From: Nitratidesulfovibrio vulgaris str. Hildenborough
GTDB taxonomy: Bacteria > Desulfobacterota > Desulfovibrionia > Desulfovibrionales > Desulfovibrionaceae
Reading direction: 5' to 3'
DNA: 32,000 nucleotides
Assembly: GCF_000195755.1 (NCBI RefSeq)
Contig: NC_002937.3
Coordinates: forward strand, 1,920,001-1,952,000
Shown here: positions 2,225 through 13,368 of the stretch, in pieces
Layout: every line of letters starts with the position of its first letter
Position numbering within the stretch: the stretch's first letter is position 1
The notes under the pieces: generated by a model
What the model was told of the DNA's origin: nothing
The model's database searches: none
The model's input: only the letters and a program-made list of their open reading frames with translations
Made by a program: the position numbers and the translations under genes

Positions 2225-2270
2225 TCTTGCAGGCGACAGTTTGAGCGGCTGTTGTCAACGCAAAGCCATG

Positions 2271-2621
2271 GGGGCGCACTGGTTTCGACGGGGACGTAGA
2301 AGCCGGAGTTGCAGGCCGAGGCGCCGCTGGCCTCGTAAAAAGCGGCACAAAAGTAATTGCCAACAATTACGACTACGCTCTGGCTGCTTAATTGACGGCC
2401 ACGTCGAACCGGTTCACGCCTGATAGACCGGTGAGACGTAACTTCATCAGGCTGGCATCTGACGGCGCTCGCCGCGAAGGGTGCGAGAAAAACAGGTGAG
2501 CTGGTCGAAGGTTGCCTGGTCGGGGGCGAAACCTGAGATGACGATTGTACTCGACCTAAGCCTGTAGACGCTTCGTGTGGAACATTCTCGGACGCGGGTT
2601 CGATTCCCGCCGCCTCCACCA
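2271..2621 (+). ncRNA. ssrA: tmRNA (transfer-messenger RNA, SsrA)
   Basis: 5' GGGGCGCACUGGUUUCGACGGGG acceptor/D-like start. Internal tag ORF GCC AAC AAT TAC GAC TAC GCT CTG GCT GCT TAA (2359-2391) encodes ANNYDYALAA. 3' T-arm and acceptor GGACGCGGGTTCGATTCCCGCCGCCTCCACCA end at 2621. Confidence 0.95.
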
Positions 2622-5817: not shown

Positions 5818-6353
5818 TACCAGCCCCTGCACAACGTCATCTCACAAGGTATCCCATCATCGTCGCCGTCGATGGCAACGCCGGGACAATGCCGAAGGTA
5901 GTATTTCGCCTCTGCACACGAAGTCATCTGGTCGCACCGTGTCTTGCCAGCACACTTGAACTGCGGGTCTGCCTTTGCTGGCGCAGGCAGGTTCACCTCC
6001 CTCTGGTGGGAACTCTCTCCCTCAAACTGCGACCACAGAACCGCCAAAACGACAAGGACCATGACCACCACAAGCGCAGCCACCTTTTGTGCGAAGACAT
6101 CAAGGGCAGAATGACGCCCCCTCCATGCCGCAGGTCTCTGTACCCTGTCGATATAACGCACGACACTGGCGCGAGACCCCTTGGGTGACGGGGGCCCGAG
6201 ATAGTAGAGCACGCGCTCGCCGACTTCCGGCAGCGGGTGACGCGAACGAAACGCCGAGATATGGGCGAAAACACGCGGCGACCCGTCATCCGGAGAGATG
6301 AAGCCAAAACCGCGCTCGTCATTCCACTGTGCAATTTTGCCTTGATCGAACAT
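5817..6353 (-). CDS. Cold-shock domain, TM helix, Excalibur (Ca-binding) domain fusion protein, 178 aa
   Basis: Start at the internal ATG with RBS gagggcgtATG. N-terminal CSD (GKIAQWNDERGFGFISPDDGSPRVFAHISAF), hydrophobic helix (VAALVVVMVLVVLAVLW), and C-terminal Excalibur-like motif (CDQMTSCAEAKYYLRHCPGVAIDGDDDGIPCE). Confidence 0.8.
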   Translation of the reverse strand: MFDQGKIAQWNDERGFGFISPDDGSPRVFAHISAFRSRHPLPEVGERVLYYLGPPSPKGSRASVVRYIDRVQRPAAWRGRHSALDVFAQKVAALVVVMVLVVLAVLWSQFEGESSHQREVNLPAPAKADPQFKCAGKTRCDQMTSCAEAKYYLRHCPGVAIDGDDDGIPCEMTLCRGW

Positions 6354-6818: not shown

Positions 6819-8327
6819 ATGCACCAGTTTCTAACACCCCTTGTCGCCATCCTCGGCCTTTGGCTTGGGTTTCCCAATCCACTGGGGCAGGTCCCACTGC
6901 TCGCGCTGTTGTACCCGGCAGCCCTCTACGCCTGTGCCCTGCGCGCCTCCACATGGCAGACTGCCCTTCGTTCCGGCTGGCTCACGGGCATGACTGCGGC
7001 CTCGGCCTGTCTCTACTGGCTTGCGGTGCCCGTACATGATTTCGGCGACCTTCCGTGGGTGCTGGCCGTGCCTTGCGCCGTGGTCATAGGAGCCTATGTG
7101 GGGCTGTATGCCGGGCTGTTCTGCATGGCCACACATCTGTTCCGTGACCGCACGTCCCCGCTTCGGCGAGCGCTGCTTGCGGGGGTGCTGTGGTTTCTTC
7201 TGGAATGGCTGCGCGGAGTGCTGTTCACCGGCTTCCCATGGTTGTCGCTCTCTTCGGCGTTCGTGCCCTGGCCCGTTGCAGTGCAATTCGCATCGGTCGT
7301 AGGAGGCTATGGTCTTTCTGGCATCATGGCTGCCATAGCCTGTCTCGCCTATGAAAGCCTTCACGGCAGACAGACATCCCTTTGCGCGGCCACGCTGTCC
7401 GGGTTCACTCTCGTGATATGCGCATGGGGTATCATGACGCTGTCCACCCCCCTGCCGCAAAGTTCTCCGTTTGGCGCGCTCATGATTCAGGGCAACATCA
7501 ATCAGGACCAGAAATGGGAAGCGGCCTTTCAGAAGGGAACCGTTGACAAGTATCTGGCCCTGACCCGCCAAGCCCTCGGCGGCGAGCGCCCGCGGCTGGT
7601 CATCTGGCCCGAAACGTCGATGCCGTTCTATTTTCAGGAACACAAGACCTACGGCCCGGTCGTCCGTGACTTCGTAAAAGAAAACAACATCGCACTACTG
7701 ATCGGCACCCCCGGTTATGACCGGAAGACCGGCGCGGGCTACGCCCTTTTCAACCGCGCCTATCTCCTCGGTGCCGATGGCGAGACACTGGGGCATTACG
7801 ACAAGGAACACCTCGTCCCCTTCGGCGAATACCTCCCCCCCGGCCTGAACCTGCCCTTTCTTGCCAAGCTGCTGCAAGGCGTAGGCGACTTCACCCCGGG
7901 AACACGGACACAGCCGCTCAAATTGGGCGACCTTGCCCTCGGTATGCTCATCTGCTATGAAAGTATCTTTCCGGAGTTGGCCTTGCAGCGTGTCGCCGAT
8001 GGCGCGAATGTTCTCGTCAACATCAGCAACGACGCATGGTTCGGTTTTACGGCAGCCCCCGAGCAGCATATACAGCTGTCGGCCATGCGCGCCGTGGAAC
8101 AGGGACGCTTTCTGTTGCGTGGGACAAACACCGGCATCACGGCAGCTATAGACCCGCACGGCCGCATCATTGGCCGCAGTAACGTGTTCGTCGACGCGGC
8201 CGTTTTTGTCACCGCATCCCCCCTGTCATCGCGGACGGTGTATTTCCACATCGCCGCATGGCTGCCTCTGGCGGGGGTGGCACTGGCGCTGCTGCTTCTG
8301 CTTCGCCCTGTCCGGCCTTCGGCATAA
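6819..8327 (+). CDS. lnt: Apolipoprotein N-acyltransferase, 502 aa
   Basis: Multi-TM N-terminal part followed by a CN-hydrolase domain with WPE (VIWPETS), the K...E region and ICYE (MLICYESIFPE), characteristic of Lnt. Confidence 0.9.
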   Translation: MHQFLTPLVAILGLWLGFPNPLGQVPLLALLYPAALYACALRASTWQTALRSGWLTGMTAASACLYWLAVPVHDFGDLPWVLAVPCAVVIGAYVGLYAGLFCMATHLFRDRTSPLRRALLAGVLWFLLEWLRGVLFTGFPWLSLSSAFVPWPVAVQFASVVGGYGLSGIMAAIACLAYESLHGRQTSLCAATLSGFTLVICAWGIMTLSTPLPQSSPFGALMIQGNINQDQKWEAAFQKGTVDKYLALTRQALGGERPRLVIWPETSMPFYFQEHKTYGPVVRDFVKENNIALLIGTPGYDRKTGAGYALFNRAYLLGADGETLGHYDKEHLVPFGEYLPPGLNLPFLAKLLQGVGDFTPGTRTQPLKLGDLALGMLICYESIFPELALQRVADGANVLVNISNDAWFGFTAAPEQHIQLSAMRAVEQGRFLLRGTNTGITAAIDPHGRIIGRSNVFVDAAVFVTASPLSSRTVYFHIAAWLPLAGVALALLLLLRPVRPSA

Positions 8328-8350: not shown

Positions 8351-9467
8351 ATGCTCCACCTACCCGAATTGCGTACACGCAGCACAACCCTTTTCGAACA
8401 ATTCTCCACGCTATGGGGGCGTCTTTGACCTCGCGGGCAACAGACACCGCCTCTCCGAGATAGAGAAGCAGCTTTCCACGCCGGACGCGTGGAACAATCC
8501 CGAAAAGCTCACCCCCGTCCTGCAGGAGAAGAGCATGCTCGAAGGCGAGATCAATCGCCTTGAAGCGCTCGAGACCTGCCGTAACGATGTCTCCGAATGG
8601 CTGCTGCTCGCCGAAGAGGACGAAAGCGCAGAGGCCCTCGAATCGCTCGAAGAGCAGATCATCCGCCTCGAGCAGCTCATCGAGGAGACCGAGATGAACC
8701 TGCTGCTCTCCGGCAAGGAGGACAGGTTCGCCGCCCTGCTCGAAATCCATCCCGGAGCGGGTGGCACCGAAGCGCAGGACTGGGCCGAGATGCTGCTGCG
8801 CATGTACCTGCGCTGGGCCGATACACACGGCTACAAGACGGAATACCTCGACTATCTCGACGGTGACGAGGCGGGCATCAAGAGCGTCACGCTGCGCATT
8901 GCCGGCCCCAACGCCTACGGCCTTCTCAAGGGCGAACGGGGCATCCACAGACTCATCCGCATTTCGCCGTTCGACGCTTCGGGGCGCAGGCATACGTCGT
9001 TCGCCTCGGTGGACGTCATCCCCGACGTAGGGCAGGATATCAAGATCGAGATCAAGGATACCGACCTGCGCATCGACGTCTTCCGTTCAAGCGGCCCCGG
9101 CGGGCAGAGCGTCAACACCACAAGTTCCGCAGTGCGTGTGACGCACATCCCCACCGGTATCGTGGCCCAGTGCCAGAACGAGAAGTCGCAGCACCACAAC
9201 AAGGATTCCGCCCTTCAGATTCTTCGCGGTCGACTCTATGAGCTCGAATTGAGGAAACTCGAAGAAGAGAAGAAGGCGCAGTACGGAGCGAAGGACGCCA
9301 TCGGCTTCGGCAGCCAGATACGCACCTATACCCTCCAGCCCTATCGGCTTGTGAAAGACCACAGAACCAACACCGAAGTGGGCGATGTCGAAGCGGTGCT
9401 CGACGGCAGACTCGACAAACTGTTGCGGGACTACCTGCTGTACCTGCATGGACAAAAGACGAACTGA
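8351..9467 (+). CDS. prfB: Peptide chain release factor 2, expressed through a programmed +1 frameshift: join(8351..8425,8427..9467)
   Basis: Frame-0 leader MLHLPELRTRSTTLFEQFSTLWGRL ends at CTT TGA C. The +1 frame continues DLAGNRHRLSEIEKQL... and carries the SPF tripeptide (RISPFDA) and GGQ (SSGPGGQSVN). Confidence 0.92.
8414..8429 (+). promoter_or_regulatory. prfB autoregulatory +1 frameshift site
   Basis: TGGGGG-CGT-CTT-TGA-C has an internal SD-like GGGGG, a 3-nt spacer, the slippery CUU and UGA C. The spacing is the same as the classical E. coli AGGGGGUAUCUUUGAC site. Confidence 0.85.
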
Positions 9468-10443
9468 CCCCGGCAACGGTCATGAGCGTGAAAAGCTCAT
9501 CGCCGAACTTGAACGCCTTCGGGCGGCCATCGCCGCCATGGACGAGACCGTCCACGAAGGCGGCGGTACGGTTGTGTCTTCACGGCCGAACGCGGACATA
9601 GACGCCGTCAGCCTCCCCGTGCAGCCTTGCGTGATGGACAGCCCAGAGGAAGCAATGACCAACTCTTCCGGCGTGTCAGACGCCCCTCCCATTCTGGCCG
9701 TCACCCGTCTCTTTCAGGGACTCGATGCGGACACATGGCGCGACATCGCCGAACGCCACCAGCTTGAAGGCTGGTTGCCTGTGGAATTGTCGCGCGACAG
9801 CTGCACCAACCTGCGAGAATGGCAGCGCACCATCGAGGAGATGGCACGCCAGCGCGACACCGACCCGCTTACGGGCCTGCCCAACCGCAGGGCTTTCGCA
9901 AGGCACCTCGAAGCTGAACTTGAAAGGACGCGCAGAGGACGTGGCGACCTCAGTCTGGTCATTCTCGACATCGACCATTTCAAGTCGGTCAACGACAACT
10001 ACGGGCACCCCTGCGGCGACGAGGTGCTTTTACGCCTTGCCTCCCAGTTGCAGACCTCCGTGCGCCTCTACGACCTTGCAGCGCGAATCGGCGGCGAAGA
10101 GTTCGCCATCGTCCTGCCCGGCGCCTCGGCGTTGAAGGCCCAGGCCCTTTGCGAACGCATCCTGCAACGTTTCGCATCCACCGGAATGGACTGCCCGGGC
10201 GTTCCGCCCTTCCATGTCACCTTCTCCGGCGGCATCGCCACCTGTACCACCGGCGTGACCTGCCCGGCGTCCCTTCTGGTGGACAGGGCCGACAAGGCCC
10301 TCTACGAGGCCAAGCAGGCAGGGCGCAATCGCATCTACGTCCACCGGGAACCCGGCATCACACATCCTGAACGCAGCACTCTGGTCGAATCCAGCGAAAA
10401 ACAGTTTCTGTTCTCGGGCAACACAGGGCAGACCAAGCCATGA
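9448..10443 (+). CDS. Diguanylate cyclase (GGDEF domain) with an N-terminal coiled-coil/unknown region, about 331 aa; start uncertain
   Basis: DPLTGLPNRRAF, an active-site GGEEF (ARIGGEEFAIVLPG) and an RxxD I-site five residues upstream (RLYD). The ATG at 9448 overlaps the prfB end by 20 nt. Confidence 0.85.
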   Translation: MDKRRTDPGNGHEREKLIAELERLRAAIAAMDETVHEGGGTVVSSRPNADIDAVSLPVQPCVMDSPEEAMTNSSGVSDAPPILAVTRLFQGLDADTWRDIAERHQLEGWLPVELSRDSCTNLREWQRTIEEMARQRDTDPLTGLPNRRAFARHLEAELERTRRGRGDLSLVILDIDHFKSVNDNYGHPCGDEVLLRLASQLQTSVRLYDLAARIGGEEFAIVLPGASALKAQALCERILQRFASTGMDCPGVPPFHVTFSGGIATCTTGVTCPASLLVDRADKALYEAKQAGRNRIYVHREPGITHPERSTLVESSEKQFLFSGNTGQTKP

Positions 10444-11332: not shown

Positions 11333-11614
11333 ATGAACAAGAGCGAACTCATCAGAACCCTTTCGGAAGAGACCAACATCCCCATCGAAGAAGCCACCAT
11401 CGTAGTCAACACCTTCATCGACAACATGAAGGATTCGTTGCTGGCAGGCGACCGTGTCGAGATTCGCGGTTTCGGCAGCTTCAAGATCAAGGATTACGGC
11501 GGTTATTCCGGTCGCAACCCCAAAACCGGCAAGATGGTCGACGTCGAACCCAAGCGACTGCCCTTCTTCCGCGCAGGCAAGGAACTCAAAGAGTTCCTCA
11601 ATGAGCAGCAGTAG
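11333..11614 (+). CDS. ihfB: HU/IHF-family DNA-binding protein, IHF-beta-like, 93 aa
   Basis: MNKSELI...VEIRGFGSFKIK...GRNPKTGKMVDVEPKRLPFFRAGKELK matches the IHF/HU signature. RBS acggagactcgaATG. Confidence 0.85.
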   Translation: MNKSELIRTLSEETNIPIEEATIVVNTFIDNMKDSLLAGDRVEIRGFGSFKIKDYGGYSGRNPKTGKMVDVEPKRLPFFRAGKELKEFLNEQQ

Positions 11615-12494
11615 CCGTATCGCGGGGCTGCTGATAGCCATCACGGCGCTTCTGGCAGCGGATTCCGCGCTGGCGGCCCCGCTTCTTCGCATCCTCTACA
11701 ACGCCGAAACACGCGGGGCCCTGTACCCCTGCCCATCTTGAGGTGGTGCCACCTATGGCGGGCTGGCCCGGAGGGCTGGCGTACTCGGAGAGTTGCGAAA
11801 AGATACGGGCATTCCCACGCTCTTCATCGTCGGTCCCGGCGAATTCGCCCCGGACAACGGTGAAGACGGGGCCGGGAGACTGGCGGGGCTGACCCGTAAG
11901 GGATACGACCTGCTGAAGGTCGATGACGGCTACCTGTCGCCGAAGGCGGCCCAGTGGTTCATGACGCACGCCGGTGGCACTCCCGACGGTTTTCGTAGCG
12001 TCGACGGGCCACCGCAGACGCGAATACATACGGTGAACGCCCTGCGTGTCGCCGTGGTCTTCTTCCCTCCGCTGCCACAGGGCGTGGACGACCCGACACC
12101 CGAAATGGTGCGGGACGCCCTTTCAGCGGGACGCAAGGCACGCTCCGGGGCCGACCTCGTCATCGGGGTCAGTGCATGGGGCAGCCTGAACGAACGCGAC
12201 ATGCTCCCCCGTTGCGAGGGTGTCTTCGACATCCTCTTCGGGTCGGGTACGGGGTCTGCGTTCGATGGTACAGTGGACGGCGTCGCGCCGGGTGTGCTGT
12301 GGGCGCGCCCCGAACGTGACGGCAAAGGCGTCAATGTGGTCGAGGTGCTGGCCCTCCCGCAACCGGGACAACCCAACGACTGGGTTCCGGGCATCACCAT
12401 CGCCACGCGGTACATCATGCTCTCCGACACCGTCGCGCACGACCCTGCCATGGAGGCGGTCATCGGCTCGGTCCCGCCCGTAACGGCGGAATAG
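11601..12494 (+). CDS. Candidate periplasmic selenoprotein, 297 aa if TGA 11739-11741 is read as Sec47 (CxxU motif); otherwise a disrupted gene
   Basis: ATG 11601 gives a signal peptide MSSSSRIAGLLIAITALLAADSALA, then APLLRILYNAETRGALYPCPS-TGA-GGATYGGLARRAGVLGELRKDTG... This is the same frame as ORF 11793..12494, and TGA is the only stop between them. Confidence 0.5.
11762..11780 (+). promoter_or_regulatory. Candidate SECIS-like hairpin downstream of the in-frame UGA
   Basis: GCUGGCCC-gga-GGGCUGGC forms 8 bp including 2 G-U pairs. The G-rich apical loop lies about 31 nt 3' of the UGA. Folded by eye only, and alternative small hairpins exist at 11741-11754 and 11759-11770. Confidence 0.3.
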
Positions 12495-12519: not shown

Positions 12520-13368
12520 ATGAGCGGCAAGAAGGCCACTGTGCCCTTCCACAAGCTGCACGGCTGCGGCAACGATTTCGTCTTCATCGACAACCGCCAC
12601 CTCAAACTGTCCGTCGAAGCCATGCCCGACTGGGCCCGCAGTATCTGCCGACGCGCCTTCGGCGTGGGGGCCGACGGACTCGTCTTTCTCGATACCGCAC
12701 CGCAAGGGCATGAAGCCGACTACATCTGGCATTTCTACAATGCCGACGGCTCCCGTGCCGAGATGTGCGGCAACGCCTCGCGCTGTGCCGCCGTCCTTGC
12801 CGTCGATCTAGGCTTTGCCGGACCGCGCCACGCCTTCGGCACCGATGCCGGCATCGTGCACGCCGTCGCCGATGTCGAAGCCGGATACGCCAAGGTTGAA
12901 CTCACCCGGCCGCGCGACCTCGCAGCGGGGACGACTCTCGAACTGGAAGGGACGCCGTTCACAGTGCATTTCGTCAACACCGGCGTCCCGCATGCCGTAG
13001 TGTTCTCCGACTCCGTGGATGGCCTCGACCTGCGCAGGCTTGGTGCTGCCCTGCGCTATCACCCCCACTTCTCACCCGCAGGCACCAACGCCAACTTCGC
13101 CTCCATCATAGACCGCCGCACCATTCATCTGCGCACCTACGAACGCGGCGTCGAAGACGAGACCTACGCCTGCGGAACGGGTGCCGCAGCCACGGCTTTC
13201 ATCGCCCATACGCTGGGATTGACTGATGCCAGCGTGGGTGTAAGAACGTCAGGAGGCGAAGTGCTTGGCATCGACATCGAAGATGGTTCCATTTTCCTCT
13301 CCGGCAAGGCGGTCAGGGTGTTCTCGGGCGAGATGCACCCTGAAGGGCTGGGGCTGACGCTGCCCTAG
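12520..13368 (+). CDS. dapF: Diaminopimelate epimerase, 282 aa
   Basis: [11 protein letters not shown], catalytic Cys motifs MCGNASRC and YACGTGAAA. Preceded by a tandem aaggag RBS. Confidence 0.92.

Follow-up and report, generated by a model that had tools for sequence, protein, structure and literature searches.

An in-frame UGA upstream of DVU_1866 in Nitratidesulfovibrio vulgaris Hildenborough almost certainly encodes selenocysteine in an exported UshA-like protein

Introduction

Does an in-frame UGA codon end a short reading frame in the chromosome of Nitratidesulfovibrio vulgaris str. Hildenborough, or does it encode a selenocysteine (Sec) that joins this frame to the hypothetical gene located behind it? 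The question arises in a stretch of 32,000 nucleotides of this genome (contig NC_002937.3, positions 1,920,001 to 1,952,000 of the forward strand; hereafter the window, whose own numbering is used throughout unless another locus is named), where a frame that opens at the ATG at position 11601 of the forward strand meets a TGA and then continues, without any shift, into the 233-codon open reading frame (ORF) deposited as DVU_1866. A preliminary description of this DNA, made from the sequence alone, had proposed that the two halves constitute one Sec-containing exported protein, and could not tell whether such a family was already catalogued as a selenoprotein. The analysis presented here indicates that the UGA at 11739-11741 is almost certainly a real Sec codon of an exported protein of 297 residues. 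We consider it very probable that the region 11601-12494 is one gene, composed of an unannotated 5′ segment plus DVU_1866, whose product is a selenoprotein of the family NF049981 and operates along the lines discussed below.

The host is an established producer of selenoproteins. For D. vulgaris, SelD and seven other selenoproteins have been reported, namely three FdhA and one each of the DsrE-like, GlpC, HesB-like and FrhA types (PMC1794560). The organism also possesses a [NiFeSe] hydrogenase, HysL, that has been characterised as a Sec enzyme (PMC13582414).

Results

The UGA is the sole internal stop of a frame with an export signal

The frame that starts at the ATG ends at a TAG stop codon (12492-12494), and the TGA is the only stop inside its 894 nt. 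The N-terminus, MSSSSRIAGLLIAITALLAADSALA, reads as a signal peptide of the secretion (Sec) type, with an Arg-containing n-region, a hydrophobic core (Kyte-Doolittle mean over 11 residues up to 2.79) and an A-x-A; equivalent signal peptides, or else lipobox-like N-termini, are found in the homologs. The UGA itself is placed in the context YP-C44-P-S-U47-GGATYGGLARRA, so that a Cys precedes it by three residues in a C-x-x-U arrangement. All these elements had been read in the same way in the preliminary description, which had also placed the gene between an ihfB-type gene and dapF, and they are borne out here: an HU/IHF-family gene and dapF flank the frame (Table 1). The 233-aa ORF that lies downstream of the UGA, in frame with the ATG at 11601, matches exactly the deposited N. 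vulgaris Hildenborough protein DVU_1866 (AAS96342.1, WP_010939152.1, Q72AX4).

TGA or a Cys codon occupies the Sec position across the family

Orthologous loci were collected from four contigs encoding database homologs and from six genome loci (N. oxamicus, N. liaohensis, Nitratidesulfovibrio spp. and Desulfovibrio metagenome-assembled genomes; 51-79% identity). All ten carried TGA at the Sec position, within the sequence PCPS-TGA-GGGT.GGLARRA, and neither another stop nor a Cys codon was ever present. The protein is conserved on both sides of the UGA, and the longest stretch that is invariant among the orthologs, PCPSUGG.T.GGLARRA, includes the Sec position itself. When the 20 codons upstream of the UGA were compared between the window and the ortholog L004, 10 synonymous and 2 non-synonymous codon differences were counted, a pattern of purifying selection on the segment preceding the UGA.

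Word-indexed protein searches retrieved 5 and 10 homologs only, and an exhaustive search was needed to reach the forms that carry Cys. This search, carried out with the post-UGA sequence, yielded 261 cluster representatives with E-values no higher than 0.001. Forty-three long family members, taken from the best 150 of these 261 representatives, were aligned, and in 41 of them a Cys was aligned to the UGA position, nearly always as part of C-x-x-C-G. Thirty Cys forms with a mean identity of 33% shared only 11 invariant columns, which include both cysteines. The motif was present in none of 106 short database entries; 80 of these begin within ~35 residues after the Sec position, a distribution that we interpret as the footprint left by gene callers that restart after the UGA. 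Finally, in 22 metagenome loci found with a tighter alignment subset, the aligned codon was TGA (13 loci) or TGC (nine loci), never TAA or TAG, and it was always located after a signal peptide. TGA or Cys at this position is what near and distant relatives both show, and Sec forms seem to outnumber Cys forms within the family.

Tandem paralogs on the same strand were observed in some metagenome genomes, namely in L021, L022, L024, L025, L026, L027, L031 and L034. In these pairs the Cys form (CPTCG) comes first and the Sec form (CPS-TGA-G) lies ~920 nt further downstream, as in L021, where the Cys codon is at 6055 and the TGA at 6976, and each of them represents a natural Cys/Sec pair within one genome. 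A second variation concerns the N-terminus. In orthologs from other Nitratidesulfovibrio species, namely L003 (1246-1668), L005, L008 and L009, the N-terminus encoded upstream of the TGA (at 2944) is lipobox-like (LLAACA or LSACA), and ~150-200 residues of low-complexity linker, with VQD repeats in L003, separate it from the conserved domain. The window protein, L001 and L004 present a short signal peptide only. Judging from these N-termini, the same protein appears to be soluble in the periplasm of some species and lipid-anchored in others.

The protein belongs to a catalogued family of UshA-like (seleno)proteins

Profile searches were performed with the read-through protein, writing U as C. 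The equivalog model NCBIfam NF049981, "UshA-like (seleno)protein family 2", was matched with 239.8 bits (cutoff 140; E = 3.3e-71), and the match extends from residue 29 to residue 288 of the protein and from position 1 to position 261 of the 262 positions of the model, thereby spanning the UGA. NF049981 is listed in a 2026 review as a CxxU family with one Sec, with WP_420705249.1 as representative and 'GenBank annotated' as source (PMC13188914). A CxxU selenoprotein family at this locus is therefore already known, which settles the question of catalogue status raised above. Since the curated model covers the UGA, the orthologs keep the TGA and the homologs align a Cys to it, the proposal that both halves form one Sec-containing exported protein also stands. 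The window protein is a full-length member above the cutoff with the same CxxU motif, and no structural difference separates it from the family; it is only the DVU_1866 records that remain truncated. The 30 diverse Cys forms all match the model as well, so that the family comprises Sec and Cys forms. Apart from PMC13188914, no paper mentioning the accession NF049981 was found; a literature search for DVU1865 and DVU1866 found no mention of either, and no description of the SECIS, fold degeneration, synteny or function of the family was found in the searchable literature. No Pfam family matched the read-through protein, even with the E-value limit relaxed to 10.

A second selenoprotein family on a 5′-nucleotidase-type scaffold is NF041198 (UshA-like, PCGU type), which corresponds to the COG0737 'UshA-like' CxU selenoproteins of Zhang and Gladyshev 2008 (PMC2398784). 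As in the window protein, the Sec of NF041198 is N-terminal and placed after the first strand. In contrast, the NF041198 model has 519 positions that include a C-terminal domain and carries a C-x-U motif, whereas the window protein has about half this length and carries C-x-x-U. Residues 17-76 of the window protein matched model positions 10-70 with 19.4 bits against a cutoff of 275 and, given a score so far below the cutoff, the window protein is no member of NF041198. The model was nevertheless weakly matched by 29 of the 30 family-2 Cys forms (best E = 1.2e-13), and these profile matches suggest that the NF049981 family is related to the longer PCGU family.

A hairpin at the expected distance from the UGA is kept in Sec forms

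Decoding of UGA as Sec in bacteria involves a selenocysteine insertion sequence (SECIS) hairpin downstream of the codon, and the preliminary description had pointed to one with a G-rich loop about 31 nt from the UGA. At this place we found an 8-bp stem closed by a GGA triloop. Counted from the U of the UGA, the loop begins at a distance of 31 nt (11770), so that UGA and loop are separated by 28 nt. The published description of bacterial SECIS (bSECIS) elements specifies a loop of 3-9 nt, an upper stem of 4-16 bp, a G in the first two loop positions, a spacing of 16-37 nt between UGA and loop and a minimum free energy (MFE) of at most -7.5 kcal/mol (PMC13188914, Fig. 2). With its 3-nt loop, 8-bp stem, 28-nt spacing and local MFE of -13.6 kcal/mol, the window hairpin falls within all these limits.

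We then compared this hairpin in 20 distinct Sec forms. Pairing was found in 90% of the cells, compared with 28-47% when the partners were slid by 1-3 columns, and the upper six pairs were formed in 119 of 120 cells. The pair between the wobble bases of the Leu and Ala codons was seen as GC, GU, UA and UG, and none of 500 shuffles reached the observed covariation score. As the hairpin overlaps the conserved peptide G-L-A-R-R-A, the Cys forms, which encode the same peptide GGLARR and do not need a SECIS, were used as a control. A 6-bp core with a GGN loop was present in all 14 Sec clusters and in none of the five Cys clusters (70% identity clusters; Fisher p = 8.6e-5); when L035 was added as a fifteenth Sec cluster, the figures were 14 of 15 versus 0 of 5 (p ~4e-4, hypergeometric). 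The core and GGN loop being specific to Sec forms, it is only where a UGA has to be decoded that synonymous variation in Ala-Arg-Arg-Ala is restricted to GCC-CGG-NGG-GCN. The hairpin named in the preliminary description is thus kept specifically in Sec forms.

Several results weigh against assigning a SECIS function to this hairpin. The Sec form L035 (6118-6165) encodes GGLTRR (ACC) in place of GGLARR (GCC), which introduces an A.C mismatch in the otherwise invariant upper stem. Some Cys forms (L024-L026) have an equally strong stem and differ in the loop alone, and the hairpin coincides with the codons of a conserved peptide. The folding energy of the single sequence, though the hairpin is predicted, was no better than that of shuffled sequences (z = 0.06). 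Lastly, no Rfam SECIS model matched around the UGA, whether the gathering threshold or an E-value limit of 10 was applied, and only chance hits to small nucleolar RNAs and small RNAs were returned. This last negative is a weak one, because the bacterial SECIS models of Rfam cover particular gene families only. Since the folding energy equals that of the shuffles, stability was dropped as evidence, and the case for the hairpin is built on its conservation and on the contrast between Sec and Cys forms.

UGA is an ordinary stop codon elsewhere in the window

A reassigned genetic code was ruled out, since UGA is the normal stop of three other genes of the window, namely prfB, the GGDEF gene and a gene for a methyl-accepting chemotaxis protein. 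Counting against Sec decoding, selA, selB and selC were absent from the 32-kb window, as was selD, and the only tRNA-like gene there is that of the transfer-messenger RNA (tmRNA); support for this machinery in the host is indirect and comes from the reports on SelD, the other selenoproteins and HysL cited above. This tmRNA gene (2270-2621, forward strand) was recognised by Rfam RF00023 with 198.7 bits, and ARAGORN reads its tag peptide as ANNYDYALAA.

The window contains a second recoded UGA, whose mechanism is different and well known. The prfB gene (8351-9467, forward strand) presents the classic programmed +1 frameshift: ORF0 runs from the ATG at 8351 into CTT TGA C at 8423-8429, preceded by a Shine-Dalgarno-like GGGGG at 8415-8419, and translation continues in the frame of the ORF 8535..9467, which carries the PCRF and RF-1 domains.

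The protein has a 5′-nucleotidase fold without the metal site

The preliminary description had noted a faint resemblance to the N-terminal part of 5′-nucleotidases and metallophosphoesterases, together with the lack of their D-x-H motif. To look at the fold, structure models were obtained for the Cys homolog P0013, which includes the CxxC loop, and for the post-UGA part of the window protein. The AlphaFold2 model of P0013 (303 aa, 39% identical; predicted local distance difference test score, pLDDT, 79; predicted template modelling score, pTM, 0.82) matched human CD73, snake venom 5′-nucleotidase and E. coli UshA in Foldseek with E = 2e-12 to 1e-10 and probability 1.00, with query and target template modelling scores (TMq and TMt) of ~0.6 and ~0.36 and 14-15% identity, the targets being covered over their N-terminal half only. 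The post-UGA model (pLDDT 81.8, pTM 0.84) matched YunD (E = 1.9e-5, TMq 0.65) and NadN (E = 1.9e-4) and, more weakly, Rv0805, YmdB, GpdQ and Mre11, all of them metallophosphoesterases. Sequence comparisons were less telling. A profile of close orthologs gave nothing significant against the sequences of the Protein Data Bank, a more diverse profile gave marginal hits restricted to the N-terminus (venom 5′-nucleotidase, E = 0.0022; T. thermophilus 5′-nucleotidase, E = 0.092), and one homolog showed a weak match to SoxB. The resemblance noted earlier therefore proved to be one of fold: the window protein shares the N-terminal catalytic-domain fold of UshA, CD73 and bacterial 5′-nucleotidases, and the family has in common with these enzymes a GG-[LV]-ARR helix start after the first strand, as well as export.

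The metal ligands were mapped through an hhalign alignment to UshA. The alignment is collinear; its statistical weakness (probability 8%, E = 0.004) is a point against this part of the interpretation. In it, UshA D41 is aligned with N, D or E (E36 in the window protein), H43 with a variable residue (R38 in the window protein), D84 with a G followed by a conserved E, N116 with P, H117 with a variable residue, H217 with A, P or S, and both H252 and Q254 with G. Hence D41, H43, D84, N116, H217, H252 and Q254, as well as the catalytic H117/D120, are all replaced in the family, and on this weak alignment none of the conserved dimetal motifs D-x-H, G-D, G-N-H-[ED], H and G-H-x-[HQ] is found. The absence of D-x-H from the window protein, which has E36-T-R38 at its place, is thus confirmed and extends to the other metal ligands. 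Independently of the UshA alignment, no His, Asp or Asn occurs in the invariant or near-invariant columns of the 30 Cys forms; residues that are conserved include the Glu of G-x-x-E-F, the S-x-W-G segment, and Glu and Arg residues. The C-terminal nucleotide-binding domain of UshA and CD73 is also missing: neither Pfam Metallophos nor 5_nucleotid_C was matched, and the protein ends at residue 297. We conclude that the fold is UshA-like but the enzyme is not.

The gene is embedded in a conserved block

Gene neighbourhoods were compared in 23 loci by means of gene calls guided by GC content at the third codon position (GC3) and BLAST clustering; longest-ORF-first gene calling was rejected because of antisense artefacts in GC-rich DNA. 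In 18 of the 23 loci the family gene directly follows an HU-like gene, and most loci displayed the wider order lnt, prfB, GGDEF, ParA-like, HU, family gene, (dapF), dapA, even at ~30% protein identity. This synteny points to an old, vertically inherited gene within a housekeeping block of Desulfovibrio-type bacteria, a setting that offers no clue to its function. In the window, the selenoprotein gene starts before the HU/IHF-family gene has ended, and the two overlap by 14 nt; in L001 (2821-2828) and L004 (1636-1643) the overlap is 8 nt, and the start context is conserved. From this arrangement, translational coupling of the selenoprotein gene to the HU/IHF-family gene is possible.

A different neighbourhood was found in L013 (5370-10936, on the same contig as L014), L015 and L016, which constitute one Cys-form lineage of three close relatives. 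Their order is ArsR-type regulator, ArsP_1 permease(s), DGC, thioredoxin, family gene, Thioredoxin_3, DsbD_TM, rhodanese and MauE/DoxX, and this cluster is the only functionally suggestive neighbourhood found. Another Cys form has HU upstream and PhoU-like and PHO4 genes downstream, and the non-syntenic Sec locus L020 has uninformative YcaO and pilin-like neighbours.

As regards the GGDEF gene of the window, its longest ORF (9385-10443, forward strand) overlaps the last 83 nt of the prfB ORF (8535-9467, forward strand), and the true start is probably located further downstream. The GC3-based call failed on this gene, where antisense fragments were chosen.

Table 1. Features of the selenoprotein locus and its flanks, in window coordinates
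Feature	Position	Strand	Remarks
HU/IHF-family gene, upstream	11333..11614	+	Pfam Bac_DNA_binding, E = 3.5e-28
Proposed complete selenoprotein coding sequence	11601..12494	+	297 codons including Sec47, plus TAG; UshA-like (seleno)protein family 2
Predicted Sec-type signal peptide MSSSSRIAGLLIAITALLAADSALA	11601..11675	+	Predicted cleavage after A-L-A, then AP; read from the sequence
Degenerate 5′-nucleotidase-type metallophosphoesterase-fold domain	11685..12464	+	aa 29-288; Foldseek, ligand mapping
Cys44 codon TGC, first residue of C-x-x-U	11730..11732	+	Invariant in orthologs and in 30 diverse Cys-form homologs
UGA, almost certainly read as selenocysteine (Sec47)	11739..11741	+	TGA/Cys conservation in homologs
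Candidate bacterial SECIS hairpin	11762-11780	+	5′ arm 11762-11769, GGA loop 11770-11772, 3′ arm 11773-11780; overlaps codons G-L-A-R-R-A-G
Conserved core of candidate SECIS (upper 6 bp)	11764-11769 with 11773-11778		Paired in 119 of 120 cells across 20 distinct Sec forms
Deposited truncated annotation DVU_1866, 'hypothetical protein'	11793..12494	+	233 aa, TTG start
dapF, downstream neighbour	12520-13368

Discussion

The results suggest the following course of events. During translation, UGA-47 would be decoded as Sec, with SelB and Sec-tRNA(Sec) being recruited by the candidate hairpin located 28 nt downstream with its GGA loop. The signal peptide is predicted to direct the product to the periplasm, where the mature protein would adopt the N-terminal metallophosphoesterase-domain fold of 5′-nucleotidases, devoid of the canonical dimetal ligands. 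According to the alignment to 5′-nucleotidases, C44-x-x-U47 would be placed in the loop after the first β-strand, next to the vestigial active site, and we infer that this pair is the active centre. The family alignments strongly support that no reactive groups other than the C-x-x-[U/C] pair are invariant in the family.

As for what this pair does, we tentatively favour a selenol/thiol-selenylsulfide centre engaged in envelope redox reactions or in sulfur/selenium (chalcogen) transfer, a reading that we regard as plausible and stop short of calling probable. The oxidised C44/U47 pair would then be re-reduced through thioredoxin and a CcdA/DsbD-type route. This reading is based on the interchange of Sec and Cys in a CxxC-type pair, on export and on the cluster of thioredoxin, Thioredoxin_3 and DsbD_TM genes in one lineage. 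Exported CxxC/CxxU oxidoreductases, such as DsbA-like, thioredoxin-like and Prx-like selenoproteins, likewise have a Cys/Sec pair spaced by two residues, interchange with CxxC and an extracytoplasmic location, and they share with the one family lineage the neighbours of thioredoxin/DsbD type. In other respects the comparison speaks against a redox role. The fold of the family is not thioredoxin-like: no thioredoxin-family profile hit was obtained, nor was a thioredoxin fold with CxxC at a helix N-terminus found, and in the P0013 model the motif is in a flexible loop modelled with low confidence (pLDDT ~58-63). Besides, the usual neighbourhood (lnt, prfB, GGDEF, ParA-like, HU, dapF, dapA) is uninformative on redox, and the redox-type cluster is limited to a single lineage of three close relatives.

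The main rival to a redox couple is that, in the same selenoprotein, C-x-x-U serves as a metal or metalloid site (Ni, Cu, Zn, Hg, As, sulfide/selenide species) that replaces the dimetal centre. The alignment to 5′-nucleotidases sets the pair in the loop right after the D-x-H position, the family has a nearly invariant Glu beside the position that once held the G-D ligand, and Sec is a metal ligand in FdhA and [NiFeSe] hydrogenase of the same organism. However, only two soft ligands are conserved, with no conserved His, Asp or additional Cys, and export through the Sec pathway means that any metal would have to be acquired in the periplasm. The L013/L015/L016-type neighbourhood can be invoked on both sides, as it includes an ArsR-type regulator and ArsP_1 permeases but is richer in thiol-disulfide proteins (thioredoxin, Thioredoxin_3, DsbD_TM). 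On balance we consider such a site rather unlikely. A broader formulation, in which a metallophosphoesterase scaffold whose dimetal site is gone was rebuilt around a Cys-Sec pair to give an exported selenoenzyme for redox or for chalcogen/metalloid handling, is possible, and we put it forward with reserve.

A further option, to which we give very little credence, is that the protein has remained a UshA-type phosphoesterase or nucleotidase whose catalysis is aided by Sec. The fold is that of 5′-nucleotidases and metallophosphoesterases, there are weak sequence matches to 5′-nucleotidases and, for one homolog, to SoxB, and PhoU-like and PHO4 phosphate-transport genes lie downstream in one Cys-form locus. 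Against this, non-ligand residues stand in the family at the aligned positions of the catalytic His-Asp dyad and of all seven metal ligands of UshA, the family conserves no His, Asp or Asn, and the Pfam Metallophos and 5_nucleotid_C matches and the C-terminal substrate-binding domain are all absent. The loss of the dimetal ligands, added to the lack of a nucleotide-binding domain, makes phosphoesterase activity very unlikely, and this candidate was rejected.

Termination at the UGA, leaving a 46-codon ORF and a separate 233-codon gene or else a pseudogene with a nonsense mutation, is extremely improbable: the deposited records do annotate the 233-aa ORF alone, from a TTG start, and gene callers split the homologs alike, but TGA is kept in each of the 10 orthologous loci as well as in 13 homologs of the distant set, with no other stop ever taking its place, full-length homologs have Cys there, conservation of the protein peaks in a block that includes the UGA, selection upstream of it is purifying, a hairpin specific to Sec forms lies at SECIS distance, and a 233-aa product would be deprived of its signal peptide, of its first β-strand and of the one motif that is invariant. 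Both the pseudogene and the two-gene version were rejected on account of the conservation on both sides of the TGA and of the Cys in full-length homologs.

For a model sulfate reducer, the consequence is that the widely used DVU_1866 records omit the part of the protein that carries its signal peptide, first strand and active-site motif, and in this truncated form they would mislead proteomics searches, the interpretation of fitness screens and structure prediction. The literature on the family amounts to one table row; what is new here is a 5′-nucleotidase fold without metal ligands, in which the Cys-Sec pair would be the sole invariant chemistry. N. vulgaris Hildenborough is genetically tractable and makes other selenoproteins, so that the function of an exported selenoprotein that apparently prefers Sec is directly testable in this organism. 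If true, a selenoenzyme derived from a degenerate phosphoesterase would represent a new kind of exported selenoenzyme, built on a non-thioredoxin fold.

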